Assembly (NCBI GenBank): GCA_964482725.1
Contig: CAYZYT010000001.1
Location: forward strand, 270,912 to 334,911
Length of the DNA stretch: 64,000 nt
Direction: 5' to 3'
Origin: an uncultured bacterium
Lineage (GTDB): Bacteria > Omnitrophota > Omnitrophia > Omnitrophales > Aquincolibacteriaceae
Shown here: positions 35,869-63,358 of the stretch, in pieces
How the letters are laid out: every line of letters begins with the position of its first letter
Numbering within the stretch: the stretch's first letter is position 1
Made by a program: the position numbers and the translations under genes
The notes under the pieces: model-generated
What the model was told of the DNA's origin: nothing
Databases searched by the model: none
What the model saw: the letters and a program-made list of their open reading frames with translations, nothing else

Positions 35869-36864
35869 TTACGAAGAAGGCAGAGAATGAAGCCTTTGCT
35901 TCAAAAGTTTTTGATCGATCAGTTGGGTCTTGTAGGTTGCAACCTTAATGGGAGACGCCGCTTTGCTGACGGCAATTCTCACCACCTCGTCATTCTTGGA
36001 TTTGCAGAGGATAATCCCCACCGACGGATTCTCTGGCCCAAGTTTCGCTGTTTCGTCCAAGACCGAAAGGTAAAACTGCATCTTCCCTACATATTTCGGC
36101 CTGAATCCTCCGATTTTCAATTCAACCGCTACGAAACACCGCAAAAGACGGTGAAAAAACAAAAGATCCACGAAGTAATCTTCGCCGCCAGCGGTCAGAC
36201 GGTATTCCTCTCCGGCAAGCGTGAAGTGGCGTCCAAACTCCAAAAAAAAGTCCCTAAGCTTCCTCAAAATCGCTTTCCTCAACTCTTTTTCACCAAAAGG
36301 ATCCTTCACATCCAAGAAATCGAGAACGTATTCATCCCGGAAATGCTCCAAAACATCCGGAGGATTTATCTGTCGGGATTTGGTAAGATCCTTTTTCGCA
36401 CAACGGGTCCGTTCAAATAGAGACGAATCTATCTGCCGTTCCAATTCTCGCCGACTCCAACGCTCCCCGGCACAGGTCCTCAGATAAAACTCCTGTTCCT
36501 CCGGTATCCGAGCCTGATGCAGAATAATTAGATTATGAGACCACGGTATTTCTGCAACCAGGGGTTGCAGTTTTGACCGGCCTTCATAAGTTTCATACAA
36601 TTTTTTCATCTCCCAAAGATTTCGGCTTGAGAACCCTTTCATGAAAGGAAAATCCGCTCGAAGATCCCCGGCAAGCATTTCAATAACCCCTTGTCCCCGT
36701 TTGGAAGTCTCGACCCAACCATGAAGTTTTTCACCAATATCCCAATACAAAGCAATAAGCTCCTTATTGACAGCTTTCAGCGCTGCGTATTGCGCCTCCC
36801 GGATCCGCGATTTGATGTCCTTCAGAAGTCCGGCATAGTGTACCGATAGCTTGTGGGTTTTCAT
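35869..36864 (-). CDS. DUF1016 / YhcG-family PDDEXK nuclease-like protein
   Basis: Core DLLFFHRLLRCFVAVELKIG...GKMQFYL with N-terminal helical domain. Homologous (~35% by eye) to 52342..53358. Separated from htpX by 1 bp. Confidence 0.7.
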   Translation of the reverse strand: MKTHKLSVHYAGLLKDIKSRIREAQYAALKAVNKELIALYWDIGEKLHGWVETSKRGQGVIEMLAGDLRADFPFMKGFSSRNLWEMKKLYETYEGRSKLQPLVAEIPWSHNLIILHQARIPEEQEFYLRTCAGERWSRRELERQIDSSLFERTRCAKKDLTKSRQINPPDVLEHFRDEYVLDFLDVKDPFGEKELRKAILRKLRDFFLEFGRHFTLAGEEYRLTAGGEDYFVDLLFFHRLLRCFVAVELKIGGFRPKYVGKMQFYLSVLDETAKLGPENPSVGIILCKSKNDEVVRIAVSKAASPIKVATYKTQLIDQKLLKQRLHSLPSS

Positions 36865-37560
36865 GCGAGAACGATAACATAATGTTTATTTAAAAGCAAT
36901 ATAATGCTGCGTTATAATCATTTTTAAAAGACGAGCGCCCTCGTCGTTGATCCGAAGAATCGTTACTGGGGGCTTATCACAAGATCTTCAAAATCGCCCG
37001 AACAATGGTTGGCTGGCATATTACAAGCAGACCCAGGCACGCAGACTAAAGACGGCACACTAAGGTAGGGCACGTTTAAACGCGCCCTACGCATTATGAG
37101 CAGATCCAGTCAGAGCATATTGCGGTCCCAATACCTTTCAATTTCAGAGGATCTGAAATTGGGGCCGTCCCAACTACCATTTTGGAAAAGAATAAGAAAG
37201 TTGAGGCGGAGGCAATTCAATATCGGAGTTTGGACCGGCAGTGTTATGGATAACAGCCTAACTAAAAAAATACCCCCATACACAGGGACGGTTCTCGCTA
37301 ACCCGCATCGTGCCAAACACTTACAAGAGAATCGTCCCCTAAGAAAGGAGTGACCTGTCACCGAGGCTTTCGAGATTCCAAATATCAACACACTCCTATT
37401 TTCAGATCTGCGTAGAAGATTACGTCTGGAGCAATGCCTTCAGGGACGGTTCTTGTGTATCCCTAAGCCCTATCACCTGTTAGCAAGAACCGTCCCTAGG
37501 AGGCTGAAGACAGCCAATTCTTGTTCTGATTCTTAAGATCGTCCGAACAATCAGAAGCGG
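36865..37560. repeat. 690-bp repeat-rich non-coding region (candidate small mobile element / ncRNA locus)
   Basis: Imperfect 17-26 bp direct repeat aagatc..tcgcccgaacaat (36978-37003) and aagatcgtccgaacaat (37536-37552). Palindrome gtagggcacgtttaaacgcgccctac (~37065-37090), hairpin caatttcagaggatctgaaattg, and gggacggttct / agaaccgtccc inverted repeats (37282-37500). Confidence 0.35.
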
Positions 37561-41411: not shown

Positions 41412-42689
41412 ATGAAAAAGTTTTTCCTTAAGGGGAATGCGGTTATCGGACAGTCCGGCGGGTGCACCGCCGTGATCAATCAAAGCCTCGCGGGCGTGGT
41501 CGCGGCCGCACGCGCTTCCAAACACATCACCGGCATCCTGGGTTCGCGTCACGGAATCGAAGGAATCCTGAACCGTTCTTTTATCGATCTCCGGACGAAG
41601 TCCCCTCAACTCATGCGGGGCATCGCGGAATCCCCTTCGGCGGCGCTCGGCTCCTCCCGCTACAAACTCAAACCCGGAGATGACCACAAGATCGTCGCGA
41701 GCCTCCGGGAGCACAATATCCGCTACGTGTTCCTGATCGGAGGAAATGATACCGCCAACACGAGCCTCCAGATCGCGCGCGCCGCGGAAAAAGATCACTA
41801 CGAGCTCCGGGTCATCCATATCCCAAAGACCATCGATAACGACCTGGTCGAGACCGACCATTGCCCCGGCTATGGCTCTGTCGCGCGCTTCGCGGCCATC
41901 ACCACGCAGGAAGCAGCCCTCGACACCAAGGCCATGAAGAATGTCGACCCCGTGAAGATCATCGAACTCATGGGAAGGAATTCCGGCTGGATCGTCGCGG
42001 CCTCGGCCCTTCTCAAAAAATCGCCCGAGGACGCGCCCCACATCCTTCTCATCCCGGAAGTCCCGTTCGATGAAACCGCTTTCATCAAAAAAACCGAAGC
42101 CGTCCTCCAATCAGTCGGCTACTGCATCATCGTGATCTCGGAAACGATCCGCGATTACGGAGGGAACCGCATCGGCCGAAAAACCGAAGGCGTCACCGCG
42201 GACCCGTTCGGACATCATTATGTGGAAGGTGCCTCCGCGCGCCTCGCAAGCATTCTTGAAAAACGATTGAAGGTGCGAGCGCGTTTTGATAAACCCGGCA
42301 CGATCCAGCGCATGTCGATGGGCTATATCTCCGAGGTGGATCAAAAAGAAGCTTATCAGGCAGGTGTCCATGCTGTGCAATGGGCGCTCCAAGGCATGAC
42401 ACGGGTCATGGTGGGATTTGATAGAAAGCCGGGCGTGCCCAATTCTCCATCAAAAAATTCAACGGTCAATTGGGCTCGTCCTGGCAACCTTAAGTCAAAA
42501 GAAAAAAAATGCCAGGGCGAGAAATACGTTATCAGTTACAAGCCCGTGCCCCTCGAAAAGATCCCGAACAATGAGCGCGACCTCCCGGCAGGATTTTTCG
42601 ACAAGAAAAAAGGGATGATCACGCCGGCCTTCGTGAATTACGCCCTGCCCCTTCTCGGGAAAAACCTCCCAGAATTCCCCTCGTTGTAA
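41412..42689 (+). CDS. pfp: 6-phosphofructokinase, PPi-type-like (GGDGS replaced by GGNDT)
   Basis: N-terminal GQSGGCTAVINQSLAG, IGGNDT, MGRNSGW motifs; 425 aa. Confidence 0.75.
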   Translation: MKKFFLKGNAVIGQSGGCTAVINQSLAGVVAAARASKHITGILGSRHGIEGILNRSFIDLRTKSPQLMRGIAESPSAALGSSRYKLKPGDDHKIVASLREHNIRYVFLIGGNDTANTSLQIARAAEKDHYELRVIHIPKTIDNDLVETDHCPGYGSVARFAAITTQEAALDTKAMKNVDPVKIIELMGRNSGWIVAASALLKKSPEDAPHILLIPEVPFDETAFIKKTEAVLQSVGYCIIVISETIRDYGGNRIGRKTEGVTADPFGHHYVEGASARLASILEKRLKVRARFDKPGTIQRMSMGYISEVDQKEAYQAGVHAVQWALQGMTRVMVGFDRKPGVPNSPSKNSTVNWARPGNLKSKEKKCQGEKYVISYKPVPLEKIPNNERDLPAGFFDKKKGMITPAFVNYALPLLGKNLPEFPSL

Positions 42690-42716
42690 AAAAAATTACC
42701 GGACACCGTCCGGTAA
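42690..42716 (-). terminator. intrinsic terminator (9-bp GC stem ttaccggac/gtccggtaa followed by T-run on minus strand); also 3' of pfk on plus strand
   Basis: Perfect hairpin ttaccggacaccgtccggtaa at 42696-42716 with aaaaaa (T6 on minus strand) at 42690-42695. Confidence 0.55.
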
Positions 42717-42732
42717 GCAGGGACAATCTTCG

Positions 42733-42947
42733 ATTCCCTCCAAGATCAACAGGGACAGGTCTGCTTTGCACTCCTAGACCAGTCCCTAAAAAAAAGTGAC
42801 AGTCACCAGTAAAAGTGACTGCCACCAACAATGTTAGGCCTGTTCGAAGTCAACAGGGACAGGTCTGCATTGCACTCCTAGACCAGTCCCTTATTCCCTC
42901 CAAGACCAACAGGGACAGGTCTGTTATTCCTTCCAAGACCTGTCCCT
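42733..42947. repeat. hairpin-repeat family 1, locus A: 3 units of ~56 bp (spacer attccctccaagaYcaac + hairpin agggacaggtctg-N13-agaccWgtccct)
   Basis: Hairpins at 42751-42787, 42855-42891, 42911-42947. Lies between autotransporter stop (42962) and the terminator, i.e. in its 3' UTR. A 66-bp insert with small palindromes gtgacagtcac / gtgactgccac between units 1 and 2. Confidence 0.7.
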
Positions 42948-42961
42948 GAAAAAACGAGGTG

Positions 42962-45900
42962 CTAGAAATCGTACCGAACGGTGCCGTAATAGGTATTGCT
43001 CATGTACTGGTCCTTGAGCTCGATATCCCAATTCCCGGTCATCGTCATGTTCCCTTTATTCAGAAACGCGAGTTCCGCGCCGAAGAGCATCCCGCTCTTC
43101 GCCGGCTTGGCGCCCTGGGTGTTGAAGGAACTCCCGCCGCCCGCAAAACTGGCCGTCGTTTCGAACCGGTCTCCAATATAATCATAGAGCCAGGCCGCCT
43201 TCGCAGAAGGAATGAACGTCCCGACCTTCTTCGCGACCAAGGGATACGCCAGCTTCGTCCCAAGCCCCTGCTCCAGCTGATGGAACCCTTCCCCATTCAC
43301 GGTCAGATTCAGCGAATCCGCGCCCTTTTCCTTATACTTGTTCATGTAAAGATAGTTGTAGCCCAACGACACGAACGGCGTCACCTCCAGTGCCTTCGTC
43401 TTCTCGAAAACGAACTTATAGCCCGTCTCGAAATTCGTCGAATACTGCTGGCCCGCATGGTCCGCTTTCGCGACGCGCCCCGAAGTCGGCGTCACCCAGA
43501 TCTCGCGCCGGCTTTCGTAATCATTTTGCGTGAAAGCCGCCATCCCGTCCACATACCACGAATTCTCGACTTGGCTGCGCACCGCTTCATACGACCTTTT
43601 CCCGCTCTGGCGTGCCTTGTTGAGATCCAGCGAATCGAAACTCCCGTAGATCGTCGCCTGATAACTATTGATATCATCCGAGGGACTCCCCGCGGTCTTC
43701 GATTTCACACGCGCCCAGCCAAAACTCCCCGCGAAACCCGCACGGAAATGATCATCCAGCACTTTATCCGCGCCGACGGTCGTCCCGAACAGATTCCCCA
43801 TGTAGCCTTCGATCCCTTTGCGCGCGTCCTGCTTGATGTGACTCCCAAGCGCCTGCATCCAGACACCGACCCCGTCGAGCCTTTCTCCGCTTGAAACGCC
43901 GGAACCCGAACCCCCGCCGTTACGCGCGCCGCCCAACCGGTTGCCGATCGTCGTGAATCCCTGACTCGTCAGTGAACGGCTCCCCTCCGCCGCCCCCGAA
44001 CTCACGTCAGGATGCATCGTGTCCAACGCCTCGTTATATTCAGAATCCGAGAGTCCGCCCAGCATGTCCAGAACATTGTTCATATCGAACCCCGGATTGG
44101 TAATCCCGGCAAGAACCCCGGCCACTGCCGCGGCGTTGCCTGACGCTCCCGGAGCAGGCGCGAAATCGTTGGACGAAGTCAACACCAGATCCCCGCTATC
44201 CTCGCTTGCCGCAAACTTATAACGACGCGTACTGCTCGTGGTCGTCGGAACAATGTTGCCGACGCCGAAACTGCTCGCATCGATGACCGTGAATTCCGTA
44301 CCTGGCATGATCGAAAGCCCGGAATTAACCGTCACATGGACTTTGCTCCCGGCTTCCAACGTCGTCTTATCTCCCTCAATAACGAGACCGTTCTGATCGG
44401 CACTGGCACCATAAATGGTCAGCCCCAGGGTCCCACCTTTTAGATTAAATTCTTCTCCGACATTCAAGGTGTTCTCACCGACCGTCACATTGTAGGTATG
44501 AAGATCCCCAGTGATCGTCGCATCAGAATTCCCCGTAAGATTCACTGCTTTCGGAGCACCGCTACTGCCTCCAACGTCCCCGGTAAGGATAGTGGCGCCT
44601 TCAAAAATCAGCGTCCCGGTGCCGTCAGTGAGCATTGAAACGTTAGCAGTAATGTTATATCCGCCAGCCATTTTCACAAAACCGTCGCCATTAAAGTAAA
44701 GCGCGTCAGTTGCCGTCAGATCTCCGTTCATTTGCAACGTCCCGGTCCCCACCACAGCATCATAGGCATAAATATCGCCGTTGACCGCGGCATCCTCTCC
44801 GTTGAAATAAACCAACTTAAGAACCTCGCTGTCTGTACCTATATCTCCATTAACGGTAGCATTGGCGTTAAAGGTCACGCTCCCATAGATGTTCCAATCG
44901 GTTTTGATGCCGTTACTCTCCTCTGAGGGAGCCTCGGCCTTCCCAATCGTCGCGTTATCGTTGAACGTGACCTCTGGATTTGTACGCTCCTCCGCACCGT
45001 GCGGGCTGGATTTCAACCTCAGATAATCGAGATAAACATCCGCGTTGAAAGTCGTGTCCTTGTGGACGCTTACGGTGGAAAGATACGCATCGCTCGAGCC
45101 TACTTGTCCCTCCACGGTCGCGCTTTCCTTAAAAACGACTTTCCCGAGGTCTGCCCCTTCGCTCGTGATCGTAATACCACCGTCCCCGATAGAAGCGTCG
45201 CCATAAAATACGACGGAGGTGCTGGCGCCACTCCCGGTAAAATTCAAACTGTCAACATAGACGTCATAAACAGGGGCATCTACGGTATCGATATCGTTTC
45301 CAAGGTGAACTGTATGCCCCCCCTCAGTAACATTGATCGCCTTAAGATATTTCCCGGAGATGTCCCCATCCGCAGCTTCGCCGATCTGTTTTGTCACAAC
45401 GCCATCGCCGCTGAAAGTAAGCGTTCCCTGACCGTCATGCTGGGTCTTGATTGGATGATAGATCCATTCATTGTCTCCCAAGATCACTTCCCCGTCGTCC
45501 GTGAAGATCAAGGTTGAGTTCGGTGTGCCAGGCTCATAAAACGACCCGTTTAATTCCAAAGTCCCGGCGCCAACGTACATATCGGTCGCATAAACATCGC
45601 CGGTGATCGCGACTGTCGTGAGCGAACCCCCTTGCAGATCGATAAGCTTCAACGCATCCGTGCCATTACCGATCTGCCCATCGACCGTGCCATACCCTTC
45701 GAAAGTCAGGGTGCCTTCATTATCGTTTTGGGAAGTGATATTAGAAGTGATGGTATGACCATCTTCCAAAATCACTTCGCCGTCATCGGTAAAAGTAAGC
45801 GTTTCTTCGGATGTTGTGGTCAGATCGCCGTTCATCTGCAAGATTCCGGCTCCAACGTAAACGTCATTCGCCCAAAGGTTACCATTGATCGTGACCGTCG

Positions 45901-48900
45901 TCCCCTTGGCGCCATCGATGTTCACTTCACTTAAAGCCGCATCACTCGTACCAATAGCATCCTGGTAAGCGTCTTCAATAAGCTCTCCTGTAACCGTGGC
46001 GTTGCCGTTAAAATTCACGATCCCATAGCCGTCGTACTCGGTCGTGATGCCGCTTTCCCCGATATAGGCGTCCGCATTAAATGTGGCTTCTGCGTCTTCC
46101 CTCGTGCTGCTGAATTTCAACTCATCCACATAAACATCACTATTAAAAGTCGTTTGGCGATCCGCGCGTATCCTGCCAAGATATGCATCAGCTGCGCCGA
46201 CCTGGCCGTCAATGGTCGCATCGCGCTTAAAAGCGACGATCCCATGCCCGGCCCAATCAGTCGTAATACCACCTTCCCCGATATAAACCACCGCTGCGTC
46301 CTTGAACGTAACCGTTGAATCGTCCCCGGGGCCTCCCATTCCTTCAAATGCCAACTCCTCAATATAAACAGGGCTATATAACTTGACGTCATAATTACTG
46401 TCAGCAGCCTGTGTAACAATAATCTTGGAAAGGGACGCTCCCTCCTCGCCAACCTGCCCGGTAACTTCACCATCCCCTTCAAAAGTCAGCGTACCCTGGC
46501 CGGAAGCAGTGACGTTTCCGTCAATATCAACGCCATTGGCCAATTTCAATACGGCATCACCCGAAAAGTTGTACAGGGGTGAATCCTGGGTCGCGGTCAG
46601 ATAAAGCGTCCCGGCATTGATCGTGGTCCTCCCGCTGTAAGTATTCTCATTGGTGAAGACCACTTCGCCCGTACCGGACTTGGTGAGCGAACAAGAAAGT
46701 GAGTCCGTGTCGTAATCTTCAATGAGGGAATTGACAGTGAACGTGCTGCCTGAAAAATTGGTCAGGATCAACTCCCCGCCGTCGGTAGCCGCGGTCAAAG
46801 TCCCGACCCCGCCCTCGGATCCCGTGTCACCCAACGTCAGGGCGGTCGAGAGAGAACCTGCGAGAATGCCGCTTGTTTGCAACGTGTAGCCATCAAAGTC
46901 GACTGTCACCGGTGCATCTTCGGCGCTCTGGTTGAGCGTGTTGATGGGGGTCAGATCATCAAGAATGTACGCTCCGCCCTCGGTGATTTGGACATTACTG
47001 GTCGCATCACTAGGGCCGATGGGGGTGTAGCCCGTGTACGCCACGATATTGCCGTCTTCATCGACAGTCGCCCAATCTGTGCCATCTACGGTGGCCCAAG
47101 CGCCGAGGATGCCGTTGACATTTTCCCGGGTGGTCATGATCGAGTTGTACTCATCATCTTGTGTCCCGACAAAATTGATCGTCGCGCCTGTGTTGCGTTC
47201 GATATTTCCAAGATCTAAGCCGAGAGAATTTTCATCGTTCGAAAGCTCTATCGTCGAAGCGCCACTATTGAGTCTCAATCCGTCGAAATCCTGATAATTA
47301 TTGTCAGAAGATGATCCCGTGAGAAGCAGCTTTCCACCCCAGAGCCCTAAGGATGACTCCGCAGAAATGATGTCAACATTCGTAGCCGCCGTCGCGAAAT
47401 CCAGATTCAGCGTGCCCGCGACGAGTCGTGTGTCACCGGTATATTCGTTGCTACCGCTTAAAGTGAGCTCTCCCTCGCCATATTTCCCAAGATTATAAAC
47501 CCCGATGATGCCACCGCTGATCGTTAGAGTACTGCCGCTATCCACCTCAATCCCAGCATTGCCGGCAAGCATGATATCTCCAGCCCAGCTGTTGTCCCCG
47601 CTTGCACTATAAAGAGCTCCCTTGGAAAGATCCGAGGGACCGTCCAGCGTCAATGCCACATCGCCAATAACGATATCGTCTCCACCGTTGCTGTCGAGCT
47701 TGAGAATGCCGCCGTCAGCAACCTCAACGCTGTCGGTCTCTCCTAAAGCGTTGCTGTTAGTGATCGTGAGGGTGCCTTCATTTATATAGGTCGCGCCGGT
47801 GTAGCTGTTCTCGCCGTTCAAGATCACTTCCCCGACGCCGGACTTGACCAGGGATGAAGACGCGACCGGATCCGTCCATTCATCGATAGAAGCATTGATC
47901 GTGAGATTCCCGAGAGTGCTGTTATTGATAAGGACTATTTCGCCATTCTCCGTTGCGGCATACAGGGAACTGTCATCTGGTTCCACGCCTAGCGTCAGCG
48001 AACCCATGCCCTCACCAATCATGATGCCATTGACATCAAGAGCCTTTTCGTCTCCTGACGCTATGTCAACAGTCGCTGCGGCTGCTGTATTTTGCAAGAG
48101 AGTATTGATCGTGAACCAATCACTCGGATCCGTAGTCGCTCCCAAAGTGATTGGCGCGCCCGCCTCCCCCGCAGCAGTATTGATTCGAACATTCGTGTTC
48201 GCTCCGTCGGTGATCACACTGCCATAGGCATCGATGTCCGTATAGTCGGTGTAGGCCGTGATATTCGTTTCATCACCATTGGATGAACCAACTGCCCAGT
48301 CGGTCCCGCCGACAGTGGCCCACGCGCCCAGAATGCCGCTTGCAAGGTTTTCCGTGGTGGTGGTCGCGATATTTTCCGCTCCAAAGTTAATCACACCACC
48401 GGTCCGGATAATTCCGTTCATTCGGAGGGTCGTTCCTTCGCCACCATCGTCAATGGTCTGAATGATATTGTTGGCGCCGCCGGTGATCCTGACCGATGCA
48501 ACAGCTTCCACGTATTCGCCGTTGTGGAGCTCAAGCGTACCCCCGCTCATCCACAGATCGCTCCCGGACAATTTCGAAGTCTCGTAGTCGCTATAATCCA
48601 GCTTAAGCGTGCCAGCTTCCAACCAGGAGTTGGCTCCGAAGCTGATATTTTCGCCGCTTAATGTAAACGTTCCCACATCAGCTTGATCAATTTCGCCCTC
48701 GATATCGATGTTTCCAGAAATAAGGGTTTCGCCGGAACCCCAAACGCCCAAAGAATTATTTCCCGAGATATCACCCGTGAGTCTAAGAGTGCTTCCGTAG
48801 TCGGCGCCCACCCACGATGCGACATCCACACCGTCCAACGATATATTGCCAGTCCAGCTGTTGTCCCCACTTGCGCTCCAAAGGGCTGCCCCGTCTACGG

Positions 48901-50698
48901 AAGGCCCATATCCGGAAATTGACAAATCCTTACCCTCTATGGAAATATTGTCTTGAAGATCCAACTCCGCGCCGTAGGCAACCTCAACATCTCCCCCGAT
49001 CCCCAAGGCGCCGTCGCTCGTGGCAACAAGAATGCCTTCATTAATATAAGTCGCGCCGGTGTAGGTATTGTCGCCAGTGAGCGTCAGAGTCCCTTCGCCG
49101 GATTTGGTCAGGCCGATGTCGTCACCGTTATCTTGAATCACCGATCCAATCGTCAGATCGTTGTCTGTGTTGTTCTGGATGATCACCAGGTCTGCACCGC
49201 TGGCTCCTTGAAGATAGCCGCCGGTGATGGTGGAAAGATTATCGCCGACATTGCCGGTAACGAGAATGCCGCCGGAGGAAATGATATTTTCCCCAGTCAA
49301 AGTGAGCGTGTATTCGCCCTCATCGTTGAAGCGCAGGCTGTTAGGCGTGATCTCCCCCTCCGGAGTCTGTGTGCTGTCCACGCTAATGTCTGCACCGTCA
49401 TAGCTGGCCGCATCATCTTCAACGTCTGAGGTGTAGGTATAGTCTCCGGAATCAAGCGCAGTAATTTGCCCGACATCGGCACCGTCTCCCGCGCTAATCG
49501 CCCAGTCCGTCCCACCAACCGTCGCCCAACCGCCCAAAATGGTATTCGCCGTGTTGGCCGTCATAGTCGTAATACCGTTGACAACGGGATCATTCACCAC
49601 GATTGGAAGTGTAAAATCGACCGTGCCGCCGGCATCGCGGCTGATCTCTCCGAGATTCAGTAAAAGATCATTTGCGCCTACACTGTTATCAAGCGTGATC
49701 GCGGAAGCACCGCTATTGATTGTTATTCCATTGTCAAAGGTCTGGATGTTCGCGTCCGAACCGCCTGTGAGCAGCAGTGTCCCACCGTTGAGCTCCAAAT
49801 CCGTACCACTGTCGAGAATGTCATCCTGAACATTGTCCGCCGAAAAATCGAGATTCAGCGTCCCTCTATTGAGCGTCACGGTGTTGGCATCAACCTCATC
49901 TTGAAAAGTTACGGTCGTTCCGCCGCCGCCGTTCACGTTAATGGTCCCAAACTTGTCACCATCCAAACCGATAGCACCTGTGACAGTGGCGTCATTCTCA
50001 AATATTAAAGTTCCGGTATTATCATCGTTATAGGTGTCGACCGTTCCAAGAATGGCTGTGCCGCCGATCCGGATCTCGCCATCGCCCTCAAAATTTAAGG
50101 CATCAGCATAAATGTCCCCGTCGAAAATCACCGTCCCGGCGTTAATGTTCATTTCTGAAAGAGATTGCCCTTCGGCCCACATATCACCAGTAAATGTGGC
50201 AGAGCCCAAAAAATTAAGCGTTCCGGCAGAGCTATCACCGCCAATCAACAGATCCGTAACAAAAGAGTGCCCATCTGCAAGATTCAGTACATTGGCCGCG
50301 CCATCGCCTGTGAATTGCATACGGGAACCCGAAGTAAAATCAATATCTCCATCGATCGTCACGGTAGCAACGCCTGAAGTGCCAAGATCGATGCGATAAC
50401 CCGAGCTATCATCGGTCAAATCTCCGGTAAATGTGTTGGTTCCGGCAAATACCAGGATCCCGTTCTCCCCCGTCAGTGTCGCCGTGCCAATGTTAGGATT
50501 TGTAGCATCCTCCACATCCATCCAGCCGCTTATGCTTGTTGCATTATCTGCGCCCGTTAAGGGCCCAGATGGAACAGGCGACCACGATCCAGCCGTCCCC
50601 CACTCACCACCTGTTGATGTATAGTCTGCCGCAAACGCGGGCGTCACAGGTGAGAAAACGAGGGAAAGGATCGCAACGATGGACAGGAGTTTTTTCAT
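42962..50698 (-). CDS. giant autotransporter (type Va) protein with multiple autotransporter-associated beta-strand repeats and C-terminal beta-barrel translocator
   Basis: Start at MKKLLSIVAILSLVFSPVTPAFA (ATG 50698), not ORF start 50761. At least four PATR-type repeats (e.g. LTKSGEGTLTLTGDNTYTGATYINEGIL). C-terminal ~280 aa barrel ending ...YGTVRYDF. 2578 aa. Confidence 0.85.
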   Translation of the reverse strand: MKKLLSIVAILSLVFSPVTPAFAADYTSTGGEWGTAGSWSPVPSGPLTGADNATSISGWMDVEDATNPNIGTATLTGENGILVFAGTNTFTGDLTDDSSGYRIDLGTSGVATVTIDGDIDFTSGSRMQFTGDGAANVLNLADGHSFVTDLLIGGDSSAGTLNFLGSATFTGDMWAEGQSLSEMNINAGTVIFDGDIYADALNFEGDGEIRIGGTAILGTVDTYNDDNTGTLIFENDATVTGAIGLDGDKFGTINVNGGGGTTVTFQDEVDANTVTLNRGTLNLDFSADNVQDDILDSGTDLELNGGTLLLTGGSDANIQTFDNGITINSGASAITLDNSVGANDLLLNLGEISRDAGGTVDFTLPIVVNDPVVNGITTMTANTANTILGGWATVGGTDWAISAGDGADVGQITALDSGDYTYTSDVEDDAASYDGADISVDSTQTPEGEITPNSLRFNDEGEYTLTLTGENIISSGGILVTGNVGDNLSTITGGYLQGASGADLVIIQNNTDNDLTIGSVIQDNGDDIGLTKSGEGTLTLTGDNTYTGATYINEGILVATSDGALGIGGDVEVAYGAELDLQDNISIEGKDLSISGYGPSVDGAALWSASGDNSWTGNISLDGVDVASWVGADYGSTLRLTGDISGNNSLGVWGSGETLISGNIDIEGEIDQADVGTFTLSGENISFGANSWLEAGTLKLDYSDYETSKLSGSDLWMSGGTLELHNGEYVEAVASVRITGGANNIIQTIDDGGEGTTLRMNGIIRTGGVINFGAENIATTTTENLASGILGAWATVGGTDWAVGSSNGDETNITAYTDYTDIDAYGSVITDGANTNVRINTAAGEAGAPITLGATTDPSDWFTINTLLQNTAAAATVDIASGDEKALDVNGIMIGEGMGSLTLGVEPDDSSLYAATENGEIVLINNSTLGNLTINASIDEWTDPVASSSLVKSGVGEVILNGENSYTGATYINEGTLTITNSNALGETDSVEVADGGILKLDSNGGDDIVIGDVALTLDGPSDLSKGALYSASGDNSWAGDIMLAGNAGIEVDSGSTLTISGGIIGVYNLGKYGEGELTLSGSNEYTGDTRLVAGTLNLDFATAATNVDIISAESSLGLWGGKLLLTGSSSDNNYQDFDGLRLNSGASTIELSNDENSLGLDLGNIERNTGATINFVGTQDDEYNSIMTTRENVNGILGAWATVDGTDWATVDEDGNIVAYTGYTPIGPSDATSNVQITEGGAYILDDLTPINTLNQSAEDAPVTVDFDGYTLQTSGILAGSLSTALTLGDTGSEGGVGTLTAATDGGELILTNFSGSTFTVNSLIEDYDTDSLSCSLTKSGTGEVVFTNENTYSGRTTINAGTLYLTATQDSPLYNFSGDAVLKLANGVDIDGNVTASGQGTLTFEGDGEVTGQVGEEGASLSKIIVTQAADSNYDVKLYSPVYIEELAFEGMGGPGDDSTVTFKDAAVVYIGEGGITTDWAGHGIVAFKRDATIDGQVGAADAYLGRIRADRQTTFNSDVYVDELKFSSTREDAEATFNADAYIGESGITTEYDGYGIVNFNGNATVTGELIEDAYQDAIGTSDAALSEVNIDGAKGTTVTINGNLWANDVYVGAGILQMNGDLTTTSEETLTFTDDGEVILEDGHTITSNITSQNDNEGTLTFEGYGTVDGQIGNGTDALKLIDLQGGSLTTVAITGDVYATDMYVGAGTLELNGSFYEPGTPNSTLIFTDDGEVILGDNEWIYHPIKTQHDGQGTLTFSGDGVVTKQIGEAADGDISGKYLKAINVTEGGHTVHLGNDIDTVDAPVYDVYVDSLNFTGSGASTSVVFYGDASIGDGGITITSEGADLGKVVFKESATVEGQVGSSDAYLSTVSVHKDTTFNADVYLDYLRLKSSPHGAEERTNPEVTFNDNATIGKAEAPSEESNGIKTDWNIYGSVTFNANATVNGDIGTDSEVLKLVYFNGEDAAVNGDIYAYDAVVGTGTLQMNGDLTATDALYFNGDGFVKMAGGYNITANVSMLTDGTGTLIFEGATILTGDVGGSSGAPKAVNLTGNSDATITGDLHTYNVTVGENTLNVGEEFNLKGGTLGLTIYGASADQNGLVIEGDKTTLEAGSKVHVTVNSGLSIMPGTEFTVIDASSFGVGNIVPTTTSSTRRYKFAASEDSGDLVLTSSNDFAPAPGASGNAAAVAGVLAGITNPGFDMNNVLDMLGGLSDSEYNEALDTMHPDVSSGAAEGSRSLTSQGFTTIGNRLGGARNGGGSGSGVSSGERLDGVGVWMQALGSHIKQDARKGIEGYMGNLFGTTVGADKVLDDHFRAGFAGSFGWARVKSKTAGSPSDDINSYQATIYGSFDSLDLNKARQSGKRSYEAVRSQVENSWYVDGMAAFTQNDYESRREIWVTPTSGRVAKADHAGQQYSTNFETGYKFVFEKTKALEVTPFVSLGYNYLYMNKYKEKGADSLNLTVNGEGFHQLEQGLGTKLAYPLVAKKVGTFIPSAKAAWLYDYIGDRFETTASFAGGGSSFNTQGAKPAKSGMLFGAELAFLNKGNMTMTGNWDIELKDQYMSNTYYGTVRYDF

Positions 50699-50789
50699 GG
50701 GAATCATGTGGGGGAAATCTCCGTTTTGTTTTGAGAGAGAAAGGCTTGCGACTTTTTTCAAAATTGGGGTTGACCCCTATTTTTTCACT

Positions 50790-50853
50790 GTCATCCCCGC
50801 GAAGGCGGGGATCCATGCTCCGGATTCCCGATAGAAGCATTCGGGAATGACAT
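50790..50853. repeat. copy 2 of bipartite palindromic MITE-like element, 92-155 bp upstream of autotransporter start
   Basis: gtcatccccgcgaaggcggggatcc + atgctcc + ggattcccgatagaagcattcgggaatgacat. Confidence 0.6.
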
Positions 50854-50963
50854 GCGACGGAAAGAATCGATATGGATAAAACCAATCAGCCCAAAGACTT
50901 ACGGCATAAAACTTACAACCTTGATGGGGCGAATTCTACCTTCACGGCTGGAAAGGCGCAACC

Positions 50964-51029
50964 TTTTTTCCTTCTTTTTTCCTTCTTTTTTCCTTCTTTT
51001 TTCCTTCTTTTTTCCTGCTTTTTTCCTGC
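50964..51029. repeat. simple-sequence repeat: 11-bp unit ttttttccttc x4 plus ttttttcctgc x2
   Basis: Read directly. Lies in divergent promoter region between autotransporter (minus; start 50698) and small secreted-protein gene (plus; start 51229). Confidence 0.85.
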
Positions 51030-51228
51030 TGCCCCCAAAAGATATCCCGAGCCTTTTTTCCCCAAGATTCGGCCCGAACTCGACCGCCGGTCAAGGATGG
51101 ACGCGATGCCTGGGATCGATCCTGAACTTCATGATGTCTTACGCTTATAAAGGAAGCTCGGTCCAGGAGAACCCCCTCGGGGCGACCGGTCGGGAGAACG
51201 CCGGCGATATGGTATAATCCCGCTCGAG

Positions 51229-51504
51229 GTGACTCCTATGAAAAAACTTGTGGCAGTTTCAATGTTTGGAATGTTGTTCCTTTCGCTCGCGCTTCCCCTT
51301 TCGGGGGCGGCAGAGGACGACGCAACGGGAACGGGGATGAGCGGGACTTCGCAGGAATTGGCGGATCTTCAGAAAACGATGAGAAGTGAACGCATGGATA
51401 ATCTTGAGCAGAGCGTCGCCGAGATGAAACAAGCGATCAGTTCCCTCTCCGATCGTGTCCAGGATCTGGAACGGACCGTGGATGATTTCAACGGCCGGCA
51501 GTAA
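51229..51504 (+). CDS. small secreted coiled-coil protein (hypothetical)
   Basis: Signal peptide MTPMKKLVAVSMFGMLFLSLALPLSGAA. GAGG-type RBS. Its 3' ~100 bp plus downstream 40 bp are duplicated at 53668-53808. Confidence 0.5.
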   Translation: MTPMKKLVAVSMFGMLFLSLALPLSGAAEDDATGTGMSGTSQELADLQKTMRSERMDNLEQSVAEMKQAISSLSDRVQDLERTVDDFNGRQ

Positions 51505-51536
51505 GCACTGTTAAGAACGCTTTCCCTCCCGCTATC

Positions 51537-51685
51537 AGGGACAGGTCTGCTTCGCAGTCTTAGACCTGTCCCTAATTCCCTCCAAAACCCACAGGGACTG
51601 GTCTGCTTCGCACTCCTAGACCTGTCCCTTATTCCTTCCAAAACCCACAGGGACTGGTCTGCTTCGCAGTCTTAGACCTGTCCCT
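51537..51685. repeat. hairpin-repeat family 1, locus B: 3 tandem units (hairpins 51537-51573, 51593-51629, 51649-51685)
   Basis: agggacWggtctgcttcgcaStcYtagacctgtccct with spacers aattccctccaaaacccac / tattccttccaaaacccac. Confidence 0.7.
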
Positions 51686-51758
51686 GTGTTAACGAGACGC
51701 CGTCCGCGACTCGCAATTCATAGTGTCCGTTTTTCAATAGGGCTGATGTGTGTTTTAC

Positions 51759-51787
51759 TTGATTTATGTGTATCCACGTATTATACT
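51759..51787 (+). promoter_or_regulatory. near-consensus sigma70-type promoter TTGATT-N17-TATACT, followed by AAGGAGG RBS (51799-51805) and ATG 51811
   Basis: Hexamers and 17-nt spacer read directly. Confidence 0.45.
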
Positions 51788-51810
51788 CATAGTAAGAAAA
51801 GGAGGCTATT

Positions 51811-52029
51811 ATGCCAAACATGACGCTCTCGATACCGGCAGAATTGAAGATGAAAATGGACCGCTTTAAGGAGATCAACTGGTCCGAAGTCGCGAGGCAG
51901 GCTATTTTTCAAAAGACCCTGCTCATGGACAAGATGAACCAGATGATGTCCTCCAGCAAGATCAGCGAGCCGGAAACCCTGTACGCGGCCCGTAAGATCA
52001 GCCGCAAAGTCTCCCAAAGACACAAGTAG
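51811..52029 (+). CDS. ribbon-helix-helix-like small protein (putative antitoxin/regulator)
   Basis: N-terminus MPNMTLSIPAELKMKMDRFKEINWSEVARQAI fits RHH beta-strand + two helices. Strong promoter and RBS. Confidence 0.45.
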   Translation: MPNMTLSIPAELKMKMDRFKEINWSEVARQAIFQKTLLMDKMNQMMSSSKISEPETLYAARKISRKVSQRHK

Positions 52030-52036
52030 CACCCCT

Positions 52037-52288
52037 ATGGAACTGGTCGTCGACGCGAACGTCCTTCTCGCGGGCTTCATGAAAGCGGCTGTAACGCGGG
52101 AACTTCTTCTGGACAATCGCTTGAAATTGCACGCTCCGGAGCACTTGATCTATGAAACCCGGAAACACCTTTTGAGCAGCTCCCGGCTTCGAAAGCGTAT
52201 CAGCCTGTTGCCCAAGCAGATCGAGGAGATATGGTTCATCCTCACGCAAAACATCGAATCCCACGCGCCCGCAAGCCTCAATAATTGA
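52037..52288 (+). CDS. PIN-like N-terminal fragment (83 aa; probably truncated VapC-like toxin)
   Basis: MELVVDANVLLAGF resembles PIN N-terminal motif (first conserved Asp). Length too short for a complete PIN domain. Confidence 0.35.
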   Translation: MELVVDANVLLAGFMKAAVTRELLLDNRLKLHAPEHLIYETRKHLLSSSRLRKRISLLPKQIEEIWFILTQNIESHAPASLNN

Positions 52289-52341
52289 TTATTGGTAAAC
52301 ATATGATTGATTTATAATAAATGTTGTGATAGCGTATCCTC

Positions 52342-53358
52342 ATGAAGAACATGCTAAAAAAAAGAGGGCTTTATTCACGCGTCAGAAAGATCCTGGCGCA
52401 GGCGCGCTTAAGGGTGGCTCGTGCGATCAATACCGAGATGGTCCGGGCCTATTGGATGATCGGACGCGAGATCGTCGAAGAGGAACAAAAGGGAGAAGCG
52501 CGCGCCGGATACGGGCAAAAAATCCTGGAAACTCTTTCCGGACGTCTGGCGAATGGGTTTGGCGAGGGAGTTGATGCCAGCAATTTGTGGAATATGCGTA
52601 AGTTTTATCAAACCTATCCAATTCTCGACGCAGTGCGTCTAGAATTGAGCTGGACCCACTATCGTATCTTGATACGGGTTGACTCCCCCCAAGCGCGATC
52701 GTTCTATGAGATCGAATGCATCAAAAGCAACTGGTCGGCCCGGGAACTTGAACGTCAGAAAGGCTCGCTCCTTTTTGAACGGCTTGCCTTATGCAAAGAC
52801 AAAAGAGGGTTGATGAAATTAGCCCGAAGAGGACAGAAGCTTCAAACCTATAAAGACATGATCAAGGACCCGTATGTTCTGGAATTTACGGGCCTACCCT
52901 CTCGCTCCAAACTCTATGAAAGCCACCTGGAGCAGGCGCTTATTGAAAATCTCTCGAAATTTCTGTTGGAATTGGGGAAGGGGTTCACCTTCGTTGCGCG
53001 TCAAAAACGCATTACCCTGGAGGGCGATCATTTTTATATTGACCTGGTGTTCTACAACACGATCCTGAAATGCTTTGTGCTCATTGACCTAAAGATCGGC
53101 AAGCTCGCGCATCAAGACATCGGGCAGATGCAGATGTATGTGAACTATTACGACCGGAAATTAAAGGGATTGGATGATAACCCCTCGGTCGGTCTGATCC
53201 TTTGTGAGGATAAAAAGGAAGCGGTCGTGAGATACACTTTGCCGCATGGGGAAAAGCGGATCTTTGCTTCCAGATATAAGCTTCATTTGCCTACGGAAAA
53301 AGAGTTAAAGCAAGAACTGGCGCGGGAAAGACCGTTGCTGATCGCCTCTCAGGCATAA
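52342..53358 (+). CDS. DUF1016 / YhcG-family PDDEXK nuclease-like protein
   Basis: DLVFYNTILKCFVLIDLKIG...GQMQMYV core; C-terminal ...YKLHLPTEKELKQEL motif. Confidence 0.7.
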   Translation: MKNMLKKRGLYSRVRKILAQARLRVARAINTEMVRAYWMIGREIVEEEQKGEARAGYGQKILETLSGRLANGFGEGVDASNLWNMRKFYQTYPILDAVRLELSWTHYRILIRVDSPQARSFYEIECIKSNWSARELERQKGSLLFERLALCKDKRGLMKLARRGQKLQTYKDMIKDPYVLEFTGLPSRSKLYESHLEQALIENLSKFLLELGKGFTFVARQKRITLEGDHFYIDLVFYNTILKCFVLIDLKIGKLAHQDIGQMQMYVNYYDRKLKGLDDNPSVGLILCEDKKEAVVRYTLPHGEKRIFASRYKLHLPTEKELKQELARERPLLIASQA

Positions 53359-53410
53359 AACAACATATCCAAAAACTCGCACCGCTGGTGCGAGAAATAG
53401 GCTGAACTAA

Positions 53411-53515
53411 GCATTCCATGTCGCCACTTACCGGATCACTTCCCGTCTTCCCCACGAACTAAAAAAAGAGCTGCCGGGGCCGGAGCAGATCGCCTATCTT
53501 CTCGAAAAGATCTGA
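53411..53515 (+). pseudogene. 3' remnant of a further DUF1016-family gene
   Basis: Own translation: ...VATYRITSRLPHELKKELPGPEQIAYLLEKI*. Matches the C-terminal motif of both DUF1016 proteins (...YK..LP.E.ELK.EL...). In-frame stop immediately upstream, no start codon. Confidence 0.35.
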
Positions 53516-53559
53516 CCGCCGTTCCGACGAAACCCATAGGTGTTGGAACGGAGGATTTC

Positions 53560-53766
53560 ATGCTGCAACTTACGCCCGGAGAAGCCCGCTCTTTAAGGTC
53601 GCAAATTGCGCCCTTAAAGAAACGAGCTCGCGGAGGACATCGAAAATACCTTCCCTACGCCTTTACGGAGCAGAGCGTCGCCGAGATGAAACAAGCGATC
53701 AGTTCCCTCTCCGATCGTGTCCAGGATCTGGAACGGACCGTGGATGATTTTAATGGCCGGCAGTAA
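53560..53766 (+). pseudogene. chimeric ORF whose last 33 codons duplicate the 3' end of 51229..51504
   Basis: DNA 53668-53808 ~96% identical to 51406-51546. N-terminal part unrelated (MLQLTPGEARSLRSQIAPLKKRARGGHRKY). Confidence 0.3.
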
Positions 53767-53823
53767 GCGCTGTTAAGGACGCTTCCCCTCCCGCTATCAG
53801 GGGCAGTCACCGGCGTGACAACA

Positions 53824-53860
53824 GGGACAGGTCTGCTTCGCATGCCTAGACCTGTCCCTG
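53824..53860. repeat. hairpin-repeat family 1, locus C (single unit) preceded by small palindrome gtcaccggcgtgac
   Basis: agggacaggtctgcttcgcatgcctagacctgtccct. Confidence 0.65.
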
Positions 53861-53906
53861 AAAAAAAGAATCCAAAAAAAAGTAACTGTCACCAACAATG
53901 CGGGGA

Positions 53907-55505
53907 CTACGACTTCGGGGAATCCAGCAAAACGATGTGCGGATTTTTTTCCTGGAAATTCCTGAGGAGCCACTCACTGAGGAAAAGAAGGACCCGCCGT
54001 CCCTGTTCATCGCGGGCCAAGGCCGCGCCATAAGAAAGCACATCGCCAAGGTCGGTGTCCGTAAGCGCGCACTCGGCCCATCTCAGGATCTTCCACGGCA
54101 ACATTTCAAGCTGCGACTCCGCGCCGTATTCTTCCTTGAGCCGGTACTGCAGCACTTCATATTGAAGAGGGCCGACGGCTCCCAGGAGCGCCGTGTTCGG
54201 ATTGGCCGGCTTGATCCAGCTGAAGACCTGAACGATATCCTCGGCAAGCAAATGCTCCAAACCTTTCCGGAAGGGTTTGTACTTTCCCGGCGAGGGATTA
54301 TGGATCGAGGCGAAACATTCCGGCGCGAAGCGCGGGATACTGTTAAACACGACGGAGGGGTCTTCGCTCACGGTATCCCCGACGCGAAAATCCGATTTCA
54401 CAGCAAATCCAACAATGTCCCCCGGATAGGCCTCATTCACGGTCTCGCGGCTTTGCCCCAAAAGCGTGTGCGAGCCCGCGATCCTGATCTTTTTTCCGGT
54501 CCTCGTGTGATAAGCGTCCATATCCCGCGTGAATTTTCCGGAACAAATGCGCAAAAAAGCGATCCGGTCACGGTGGAGCGGGTTCATGTTGGTCTGGATC
54601 TTGAAGATGAACCCGGAAAAATCCTTGGAGGTGACGGGGATCGCCCGCTCCCCGGCTTTTCGGTCCGCCGGCCCCGTGGAGTATTTGACGAACCCGTCGA
54701 GCAGAAGCTGAACGCCGAAGTTATTCGCGGCACTTCCAAAAAAAACAGGCGTTGTTTTTCCTTCGAGCACCGACTCGGGAGAAAATCCGACATGCGCCGT
54801 GTCGAGGAGCTCGAGCTCTTCCGCCGCGGCGGCATACGACTGCTCATCCACGATCGTTTTCACCGCAGGATCCGAAAAACCGTGCATCGACACCGGCGCT
54901 TTGTAGGCCCCGCCGGGAACTTTCTGAAAAAGATGCACTTCCTTTTTAAGGCGGTCATAAACTCCGCGGAATTCCCGGCCGCTCCCCAGAGGCCAGTTCA
55001 CCGGATAGGCATGGATCCCCAGGACGGTTTCCAACTCATCGATCAGCGCGAGAGGCGCGAGGCCCGGACGGTCGAGTTTATTCATGAAGGTAAAGATCGG
55101 GATCCCCCGGTGGCGGCAGATCTCGAAAAGCTTACGGGTCTGGCTCTCGATGCCTTTTCCGGAATCGATCACCATGACCACGGCATCCACGGCCATGAGC
55201 ACCCGGTAGGTATCTTCCGAAAAATCTTTGTGACCTGGCGTATCAAGCAGATTGATCCGCCACGGACCGTAATCAAACTGAAGAAGCGTGGAGCTGATGG
55301 AGATCCCGCGCTTCTTCTCCATTTCCATCCAGTCAGAGGCCGTTTCGCGCTCCTGTTTTCGGGCGGTCACCGAGCCCGCGAGCTGGACCGCTCCGCCGTA
55401 GAGAAGGAACTTTTCCGTGAGGGTGGTTTTCCCGGCGTCCGGATGCGAAATAATCGCGAACGTCCGTCGCCTCAAAATTTCATCGTGGATCAGGCCCGTT
55501 TGCAT
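53907..55505 (-). CDS. prfC: peptide chain release factor 3
   Basis: G-domain motifs AIISHPDAGKTTLTE, DTPGHKDF, NKLDR; 532 aa, typical RF3 length. Confidence 0.9.
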   Translation of the reverse strand: MQTGLIHDEILRRRTFAIISHPDAGKTTLTEKFLLYGGAVQLAGSVTARKQERETASDWMEMEKKRGISISSTLLQFDYGPWRINLLDTPGHKDFSEDTYRVLMAVDAVVMVIDSGKGIESQTRKLFEICRHRGIPIFTFMNKLDRPGLAPLALIDELETVLGIHAYPVNWPLGSGREFRGVYDRLKKEVHLFQKVPGGAYKAPVSMHGFSDPAVKTIVDEQSYAAAAEELELLDTAHVGFSPESVLEGKTTPVFFGSAANNFGVQLLLDGFVKYSTGPADRKAGERAIPVTSKDFSGFIFKIQTNMNPLHRDRIAFLRICSGKFTRDMDAYHTRTGKKIRIAGSHTLLGQSRETVNEAYPGDIVGFAVKSDFRVGDTVSEDPSVVFNSIPRFAPECFASIHNPSPGKYKPFRKGLEHLLAEDIVQVFSWIKPANPNTALLGAVGPLQYEVLQYRLKEEYGAESQLEMLPWKILRWAECALTDTDLGDVLSYGAALARDEQGRRVLLFLSEWLLRNFQEKNPHIVLLDSPKS

Positions 55506-62536: not shown

Positions 62537-63205
62537 CTATTTCCCGGATCTTTTCAGCATGACTTTACCCGCCGAAGGACACAGCCCCCGGATCTCACAG
62601 GATCTACAATCCGCCCGGCGGGAAAAACAACGCCTACGGCCATGCTGGATGATGAGATGCGAATAGCGCGTCCAATCCTTTGGGGGCACTAACCCCGTGA
62701 GATCGTATTCGATCTTCGCGGGATCGGTGTGGCGCGTTAACCCCAACAAACGATTGATGCGGATCATGTGCGTGTCCACCGCGAGACCCGGGATGCCAAA
62801 CGCATTTCCCAAGACAACATGGGCCGTCTTCCGGCCCACGCCCGGGAGCGTGATGAGATCTTCCATGCGCGCCGGAACTTTTCCCCCGAATTTTTCAACA
62901 ACCGCTTTTGCCGCCCCCAGAATATTCTTCGCCTTATTTCTAAAAAAACCCGTACTGCGAACGATCGCCTCGATCTCGCCGGCATCCGCAACCGCAAAGG
63001 CATGCACGCCCTGATATTTTTTAAAAAGAGCCGGGGTAACTTGGTTCACGAGCCTGTCTGTGCATTGGGCGGAAAGAACGGTCGCCACCAAAAGCTCCCA
63101 TGGGGTTGAATAATGAAGGGCGCAACGGGCATCCGGATAGGCTCTGCGCAGTCTGCGAATAATGGCTTGCACACGTTTCGTTTTGATTTGAAGTGTTTCT
63201 CTCAT
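62537..63205 (-). CDS. nth: endonuclease III
   Basis: HhH-GPD motif LPGVGRKTAHVVL, catalytic region, C-terminal 4Fe-4S cysteines CxxxxxxCxxCxxxxxC. Start at MRETLQIK preferred over 63256. Confidence 0.8.
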   Translation of the reverse strand: MRETLQIKTKRVQAIIRRLRRAYPDARCALHYSTPWELLVATVLSAQCTDRLVNQVTPALFKKYQGVHAFAVADAGEIEAIVRSTGFFRNKAKNILGAAKAVVEKFGGKVPARMEDLITLPGVGRKTAHVVLGNAFGIPGLAVDTHMIRINRLLGLTRHTDPAKIEYDLTGLVPPKDWTRYSHLIIQHGRRRCFSRRADCRSCEIRGLCPSAGKVMLKRSGK

Positions 63206-63217
63206 AAGGAATCGTAG

Positions 63218-63291
63218 ATCGTATGTCGTATGTAGCATGTCGCAGATTGAACACATCGTTTGACGACATACGACATACTACATACGCACCC
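63218..63291. other. imperfect inverted repeat (cgtatgtcgtatgtagcatgtcg ... cgacatacgacatactacatacg) in nth 5' region
   Basis: Read directly: arms of ~24 nt built from catacg/cgtatg motifs separated by ~22 nt. Confidence 0.3.
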
Positions 63292-63358
63292 CGACGTTGT
63301 CATCCGCATTGTCCTTCACTTCTATTTCCAGTATACTTCGCCTCTAGGGAGAATTTTT

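Follow-up and report, generated by a model that had tools for sequence, protein, structure and literature searches.

Short palindromic repeats that lie between bacterial genes have been described in several lineages. The repetitive extragenic palindromic (REP) sequences and bacterial interspersed mosaic elements (BIMEs) of enterobacteria and the REP doublets forming hairpins (REPINs) of Pseudomonas, the latter with REP-associated tyrosine transposases (RAYTs), are imperfect palindromes of 35-40 nt, extragenic and multicopy, which occur at gene ends or inside operons and in either orientation. We describe a 37-nt hairpin that is alike in these respects in an uncultured bacterium of the phylum Omnitrophota (assembly GCA_964482725.1). 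The window, that is the whole stretch of 64,000 nt analysed (contig CAYZYT010000001.1, positions 270,912 to 334,911), holds seven such hairpins at three intergenic loci, here called A, B and C. The unit is repeated, lies between genes at their 3' ends, occurs in mixed orientation, forms variable arrays, is conserved in sequence and is found where rearrangements have taken place. With some reservation, we favour the reading that the hairpins belong to a REP/BIME-like family of dispersed palindromes, with multiple copies in this genome and further ones in several other metagenome-assembled genomes (MAGs) of Omnitrophota. Membership of a RAYT-REP system proper is not established, as a GTAG head, an inverted doublet and, in limited sequence, a RAYT were not found. 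The element is of an ordinary kind in a new host: literature searches returned no published description of interspersed repeats in Omnitrophota and nothing relevant on Omnitrophota plus REP, on DUF1016 plus ORF6N or on the arm sequence of the hairpin.

BOX elements of Streptococcus pneumoniae and the mycobacterial interspersed repetitive units (MIRUs) are modular intergenic repeats with a module of 40-60 nt placed head to tail; their copy number varies between strains and they lie between operon genes. Head-to-tail modules, variable number and intergenic position are shared by the Omnitrophota hairpins, but the sequences and module sets are different, MIRUs are not strong hairpins, and homology is not expected. 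Rickettsia palindromic elements (RPEs) are in-frame insertions. At one locus of an Omnitrophota MAG (L039), a hairpin of the present family (family 1) and one of a second family (family 2) likewise lie in frame inside a long open reading frame (ORF) without a stop codon; however, the window has no in-frame hairpin, and the L039 ORF, which is without detectable homologues, is at most a possible case of insertion. Integron attC sites, including clusters of attC sites lacking an integrase (CALIN), are comparable as imperfect inverted repeats beside promoterless accessory genes, among them toxin-antitoxin genes, and as brackets of a variable cassette. Here, however, R''/R' boxes (RYYYAAC ... GTTRRRY) and IntI are absent, several hairpins are stacked at 19-nt spacing, and most copies lie between housekeeping genes. 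With REP and REPIN sequences the hairpins further share tandem clusters, possible flanking A/T runs and a tie to rearrangements; tandem clusters of up to about 5 units and A/T-run flanks are known in Pseudomonas and E. coli (PMC3337134). The Omnitrophota unit differs from these in lacking a GTAG-type head and a detected RAYT, in being repeated directly, head to tail, and in a stem and loop kept across several MAGs, whereas REP sequences are species-specific. A conserved spacer motif is present in the arrays as in BIMEs, but the orientation of the units does not alternate.

Anatomy and conservation of the hairpin unit

The 37-nt core consists of A-GGGACNGGTCT, a 13-nt loop (GCTTYGC plus six further nucleotides) and AGACCNGTCCC-T, with a stem of 12-13 bp. 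All seven units that a preliminary description of this DNA had reported were confirmed at their places, and the number expected by chance is effectively none. The exact hairpin pattern matched three times in the window and never in 100 shuffles, and the 13-mer arm with at most two mismatches gave 16 matches where 0.82 were expected, 14 of them being both arms of the seven units. A covariance model (R1) built from 30 distinct units and run with filters off recovered exactly seven units in the 64 kb (E 2e-13 to 7e-9), with no further match in the window below E=1. Since all seven score far higher on the + strand (45-63 bits) than on the other strand (33-37 bits), they share one orientation.

Locus A contains units A1 (42751-42787, +; A:A mismatch at pair 7-32, 60.9 bits, RNA fold of -17.3 kcal/mol), A2 (42855-42891, +; A:A mismatch, loop GCATTGCACTCCT, 56.6 bits) and A3 (42911-42947, +; perfect stem, 44.8 bits). 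The variant loop of A3, GTTATTCCTTCCA, is spacer-like and looks like a copy of the spacer; it recurs in two loci from other genomes, L061 and L068. Locus B is an array of three head-to-tail + strand units (51537-51573, 51593-51629 and 51649-51685), the second and third with a T:T mismatch, for which Tandem Repeats Finder reports a period of 56, 2.7 copies and 92% matches. The single + strand unit of locus C (53823-53859; 63.3 bits) has a perfect stem. A spacing of about 56 bp, as originally proposed for the whole family, applies to the locus B array and to A2/A3 but not to A1 and A2, which are 104 nt apart. The spacer motif ATTCCYTCCAARAYCMAC occurs on the + strand at 42733-42750, 42893-42910, 51575-51592 and 51631-51648, four matches against 0.04 expected. 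Fold energies of the units, on both strands, are -17 to -27 kcal/mol for RNA and -13 to -15 kcal/mol for DNA, and the z-scores of the RNA folds range from -2.6 to -7.3.

Among the 30 distinct units, 96% of stem cells are paired and 6 of the 12 pairs are invariant. The conservation pattern of the arms resolves into an invariant GGGAC half-site and an invariant GGTCT half-site, separated by a single free base. The A:A and T:T mismatches of the window are all confined to one stem position, pair 7-32, which is unpaired in 9 of the 30 units. The earlier statement that stem variants are never compensatory is correct inside the window but fails across genomes, where compensatory double changes from A:T to G:C are found at pair 7-32 in 4 sequences and at pair 1-38 in 3 sequences. 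The loop opens with a GC-NNN-GC mini-stem in which two T:G wobbles are permitted on the + reading only. On one strand it contains GCGAAGC, a sequence known to form an unusually stable mini-hairpin in single-stranded DNA.

Copies, arrays and genomic position

A scan of one genome per species with a pattern that held only the two arms and left the loop unconstrained gave matches in 54 stretches, spread over many phyla. Most of these differ in loop and flanks and were treated as other palindromes. In a subgroup, however, drawn from at least nine MAGs besides the source genome (five carry the name Omnitrophota), the hairpins have the loop start GCTTYGC in one orientation; the element is thus not confined to the window. 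Related MAGs have 2-5 exact matches each, and the window has 7 units at 3 loci in 64 kb. A metagenome scan added L061, a syntenic relative of the window, and, downstream of ORF6N genes in L063 and L068, arrays of 3-4 units; viral contigs gave no match to the hairpin.

The remaining cross-phylum matches to an 11-bp arm (Acidobacteriota, Planctomycetota, Clostridia) were not taken as homologues because their loops and flanks differ. Our rough arithmetic for such an arm gives about 0.7 matches in random sequence, or on the order of 50 if about 1 in 10^4 11-mers stands in a perfect hairpin. As a separate observation, the arm GGGACAGGTCT forms repeat families of its own in other phyla, with 7 exact hairpins in one Acidobacteriota MAG (L001, L006, L011, L015, L019, L023, L034), 6 in another (L002, L003, L008, L014, L044, L049) and 4 in one Gemmataceae MAG (L007, L028, L032, L033). 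The Acidobacteriota copies are embedded among GGACACGGAGG-type short repeats, and the loops and flanks of all these families are unlike those of the Omnitrophota units.

The hairpins occur singly or as head-to-tail arrays, some of them inside operons, and relatives differ in both the number of units and the period of the array: 56 nt in the window, 66 nt in L063/L068 (3-4 units), 81 nt in L022 (4 units) and 116 nt in L061. A related spacer motif, TTCCYT...CAARAYC, is present in all arrays. Other features are specific to individual arrays, such as A:A in locus A and L063, T:T with an 'aaaaccc' spacer in locus B and a GCTCCGC loop in L022. Derived variants that are shared inside a single array indicate growth by local duplication.

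Short-read contigs of the same strain, which is present in runs SRR12261223, SRR12261224 and SRR12261227, show that its genome has further copies. Five contigs that match the window without a difference terminate in, or within about 85 nt of, a family-1 or family-2 hairpin: the Logan contigs L055-L057 end in unit C or within about 85 nt beyond it, one window-identical contig ends inside unit A3, and Logan contig L077 begins inside the second family-2 hairpin. As these contigs break at the hairpins, both families are evidently repeated in the source genome.

Like REP sequences, the units are short palindromes able to form a stem-loop and are predominantly extragenic at gene ends. At least 14 of 20 loci have the hairpin or array 4-61 nt past a stop codon, in co-directional or convergent gaps, in agreement with the suggested association with gene 3' ends. 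All three loci of the window are intergenic; among the other loci, L039 and L005 are possible exceptions. No clear divergent-promoter (head-to-head) case was seen among the 20 loci. Gaps with a hairpin include those between nuoE and nuoF and between genes for aspartate kinase and a LeuA-like protein; the neighbours at other hairpin loci are diverse housekeeping genes, for example that of PolA. In co-directional loci five hairpins are antisense and four sense to transcription.

The neighbourhood of DUF1016 genes, from which a mobile or recombinogenic partner role had been surmised, did not recur. A tblastn search with both DUF1016 proteins of the window found no homologue in any other fetched locus, about 20 of which bear hairpins, and the link to DUF1016 is therefore not supported. 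Rather than partners of the repeat, the DUF1016 genes are more plausibly cargo of such variable sites. The only recurrent neighbour family is ORF6N, with both cases in one locus. The two DUF1016/YhcG genes of the window (35869-36864 and 52342-53358) are themselves 34% identical to each other and match the PADLOC phage-defence candidate PDC-S02 with 5e-119 and 1e-143, respectively.

Rearrangements at the arrays and competing explanations

The part of the preliminary proposal that assigned a recombinogenic role to the repeat gained support from the relatives L061, L076 and L068. An inserted accessory cassette of 2.1 kb (51686-53667, +) lies between loci B and C and is absent from L061. It carries a VapB-like gene (51811-52029), a truncated PIN gene (52037-52288), the intact DUF1016/YhcG gene at 52342-53358 and an ORF6N fragment (about 53551-53667; ORF6N 2.9e-5, PDC-S05 2e-8). 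Upstream of locus B, a 91-aa ORF (51229-51504, +) ends 32 nt before the first unit. Its 3' end and the leader that follows form the left copy (51406-51544, +) of a 139-nt direct repeat; the right copy (53668-53806, +), followed by unit C, is joined to the ORF6N fragment in the same reading frame, with a GAGCAG microhomology at the junction. The leader described as common to loci B and C is shared indeed, but it is the tail of this longer repeat, which includes the last 99 nt of the 91-aa ORF. The two copies are 96% identical, and the right one is closer to L061 (1 difference) than the left one (4 differences). L061 itself has the order 91-aa gene, leader, hairpin, 116 nt, hairpin, prfC without the cassette, which gives two units where the window has one; its prfC is 94% identical to that of the window at the nucleotide level, and its orthologue of the 91-aa protein is 96.7% identical. 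In L076, a closer relative (prfC 97% aa identity), the end of an ORF6N gene converges on prfC with no hairpin there. Two tandem ORF6N paralogues in L068 (142-717 and 933-1463, minus strand) are each followed by a hairpin array, and L063 is organized likewise. Most of the length of the L068 paralogues shows about 45-73% identity (in 40-nt blocks), whereas their last ~110 nt, together with the first hairpin unit, reach 93-97%. Sequence upstream of an array has thus been copied along with the array in two independent cases, which indicates that arrays behave as hot-spots of recombination or conversion. On these comparisons the hairpin arrays look recombinogenic.

Several further element classes were considered for the units. 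The units are not among the sites of a terminator scan and have no U-tract past the stem on either strand, which rules out intrinsic terminators; two neighbouring hairpins (42826-42795 and 42716-42696) do qualify. Integron attC sites are ruled out on anatomy, with no R boxes at the foot by inspection, hairpins stacked without ORFs and no integrase in the window. A CRISPR array is ruled out because the 19-nt spacers constitute a conserved motif. AGGA appears in some minus-strand loops, but a CsrB-like GGA sponge is ruled out by the absence of GGA in B1, B3 and C, and pairs of DNA uptake or uptake signal sequences (DUS/USS) by the rarity of solitary arms, of which only 2 two-mismatch matches lie outside hairpins (0.82 expected). 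Rfam 15 gave no match in the window at the gathering score; between 36.8 and 54 kb, matches at E up to 5 were chance-level only, and none fell on the units.

The preference for a DNA-level element of the REP/BIME type over a strand-specific RNA gene, already expressed in the preliminary description, is borne out by a stem conserved in sequence, tolerated mismatches, mixed orientation and the lack of an Rfam match. At the DNA level, an enzyme acting in trans might seed new loci by recognizing the arm half-sites GGGAC-N-GGTCT and perhaps also the GC-NNN-GC mini-hairpin of the loop; a RAYT-type single-strand transposase would be its best analogy. Arrays would expand and contract via slipped-strand mispairing; they could also offer homology patches and, as hairpins or cruciforms, sites of breakage. 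Breaks at arrays may start ectopic repair in which about 110-140 nt of the upstream flank are copied and foreign cassettes can become established. Once transcribed, a stem of -17 to -27 kcal/mol probably shields the upstream mRNA from 3' exonucleases, as REP sequences do, in a passive or co-opted role. Such protection would account for the tolerance of copies at gene ends.

Several observations weigh against a REP/BIME-like repeat. Stem and loop are near-identical over several MAGs, which exceeds the usual species-specific conservation of REP sequences. Loci in the window number only three and lie within 11 kb of one another, and no copy was found in about 85 kb around prfC of four relatives, which together indicate a patchy abundance; in relatives at 84-90% prfC aa identity, prfC synteny is not conserved and the hairpins were not found. 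Neither a Y1/RAYT protein (PF01797) nor another transposase or integrase is encoded among about 57 ORFs of the window, nor was such an enzyme present in the flanks of about 20 related loci. There is no GTAG-like tetranucleotide at the foot of the hairpin, where the preceding bases vary among the 30 units (caac, ccac, atc, tta, aaa and others), and the units are direct repeats, neither inverted doublets as in REPINs nor alternating REPs as in BIMEs. In addition, the compensatory changes at two pairs show that pairing itself matters too, which fits a function as RNA or as single-stranded DNA equally.

Three alternatives are compatible with a REP/BIME-like repeat. The hairpin could be a selected RNA element, that is a 3'-end stabiliser, a pause or terminator signal or the site of an RNA-binding protein, so that its repetition would reflect recruitment at many genes instead of selfish spread. 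This would suit the very stable stems with their low z-scores, the position of most copies 4-61 nt past stop codons and of some inside operons, the placement of A3 and A2 in the 3' untranslated region of an autotransporter gene ahead of a canonical terminator, the A:T to G:C double changes and the two T:G wobbles allowed on the + reading only. However, with five antisense and four sense copies the conserved loop would be read as two different RNAs, neither strand has a U-tract and the terminator scan misses the units, 6 of 12 stem pairs are invariant while a mismatch hot-spot is tolerated, Rfam has no match, and both presence and unit number vary among close relatives. We consider a selected RNA element possible but doubtful. 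Binding of the double-stranded form by a dimeric regulator or by a nucleoid or topology protein, with each palindrome operator-like and arrays as clusters of sites, appears very unlikely to us. The invariant half-sites GGGAC and GGTCT around a free base could be read in this way, and E. coli BIMEs bind IHF (integration host factor) and gyrase. On the other hand, the hairpins are placed at gene ends and not at promoters, with no clear head-to-head case, solitary half-sites are missing elsewhere in the window, and a conserved asymmetric 13-nt loop with a mini-stem of its own is unexpected for a simple dimer operator.

The rearrangements at the arrays also allow a more far-reaching interpretation, in which arrays are cis-sites for cassette capture, similar to attC sites or HUH rolling-circle ends, and a dedicated enzyme moves modules of a gene 3' end plus hairpin and inserts defence-type cassettes. 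The arrays would in that case belong to an undescribed single-strand (HUH-like) or site-specific recombination system of Omnitrophota, integron-like but with a different site and enzyme; recognition would depend on the GGGAC-N-GGTCT arms and on the loop's GC-NNN-GC mini-hairpin. Arrays B and C bracket a cassette with defence candidates that L061 lacks, the co-copied 110-140 nt lie on the same (5') side in both independent cases, arrays stand behind the ORF6N genes of L063/L068 and unit C behind that of the window, and the GCGAAGC of one loop strand, known as an unusually stable single-stranded mini-hairpin, would fit as well. Against it stand the lack of an integrase or HUH gene in the window and the sampled flanks, the lack of attC R-box features in units that are stacked without intervening ORFs, and the fact that most other copies have housekeeping genes on either side and no cassette. 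At the right junction, a gene is truncated by a microhomology fusion, which is typical of illegitimate and not of site-specific recombination. Both the capture site and the recombination system built on it are, in our judgement, improbable.

With the REP/BIME-like repeat, a defined repeat family and a working covariance model become available for an uncultured phylum. The family explains why short-read assemblies of these genomes break at particular spots, and array length offers a marker for strain typing. The hairpins also flag intergenic hot-spots for the gain, truncation and fusion of defence-candidate genes (PDC-S02/DUF1016, PDC-S05/ORF6N and VapBC). Should a cognate enzyme exist, systems like REP-RAYT would extend far beyond the Proteobacteria.

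Neighbouring genes and other small repeats

The window is ordinary chromosome, and its other ORFs are housekeeping or signalling genes. Locus A lies between two convergent genes, one for phosphofructokinase (41412-42689, +) and one for a 2599-aa autotransporter (42962-50761, -; Autotransporter beta-domain 2.6e-49, PATR repeats), and begins 14 nt beyond the stop codon of the latter. Between units A2 and A1 lies a terminator-like hairpin plus T7 on the minus strand (42795-42826) with two GTGACNGYCAC modules, and beyond A1 a second canonical one plus T8 (42696-42716, -). The array had been placed before the terminator of the autotransporter gene; this is accurate for A3 and A2, which precede the first of these minus-strand hairpins, but A1 sits between the two. 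A lone copy of the GTGACNGYCAC module is located downstream of unit C at 53882-53900. The 91-aa ORF next to locus B has no Pfam family above threshold and no record by exact look-up of its protein, which by our reading of the sequence looks like a secreted coiled-coil protein. Locus C is flanked by the chimeric ORF and, on the other strand, by prfC (release factor 3; 53907-55505, -), whose stop codon is 47 nt from unit C and whose product is 84-86% identical to proteins named Candidatus Omnitrophota/Omnitrophica. The assignment of the window to Omnitrophota was based on this gene, with which relatives were also retrieved.

The hairpins of the type GGGACGGTTCT ... AGAACCGTCCC that had been noticed near the other DUF1016 gene are real, and two were found (37285-37338 and 37443-37496, +) in the 687-nt spacer between that gene and a HAD hydrolase gene. 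In these hairpins of the sister family 2, the loops measure 32 nt between the searched 11-nt arms, and the extended stems reach up to 14 bp. Their loops are variable, the foot AGGGAC/GTCCCT is common to both families, and the two families occur together in the window, L039 and L042. In L039 they are adjacent (7147-7243) and in frame, without stop codons, in a 568-aa ORF (peptide ...LRDRSNEQNRPVPELPTSGTVLGTNPENSKNRPLA...) for which no homologues were found at E up to 1e-10. A GTAG-headed palindrome, GTAGGGCACGTTTAAACGCGCCCTAC, is present at 37065-37090 of the window and at 4033-4078 and 6187-6224 of L039 (87-95% identity); it is a third small repeat family, with a REP-like GTAG foot. Upstream of the autotransporter start lies another palindromic element (50780-50850; GTCATCCCCGCGAAGGCGGGGATCC ... 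GGGAATGAC), which is 83% identical over 65 nt to L005 3623-3687 and which translates into peptides of the PAKAGI / LRGDD type, as is usual where spurious ORFs run across repeats. Several distinct palindromes in the window, L039 and L042 indicate that this lineage bears multiple small palindromic repeat families.

A pyrimidine-rich microsatellite (50963-51027) in the divergent gap that separates the autotransporter start from the 91-aa ORF consists of 5.9 copies of CTTTTTTCCTT with 98% matches and could vary in length. Further away, four consecutive paralogous response-regulator genes of 250-261 aa (23005-26213, -) stand beside an AddB-like helicase-nuclease gene (26327-29467). Finally, a 21-nt inverted repeat of CGTATGT-like short repeats (CGTAGATCGTATGTCGTATGT / ACATACGACATACTACATACG) at 63213-63286 spans the gap between the divergent ORFs 62537-63256 (-) and 63260-64000 (+).

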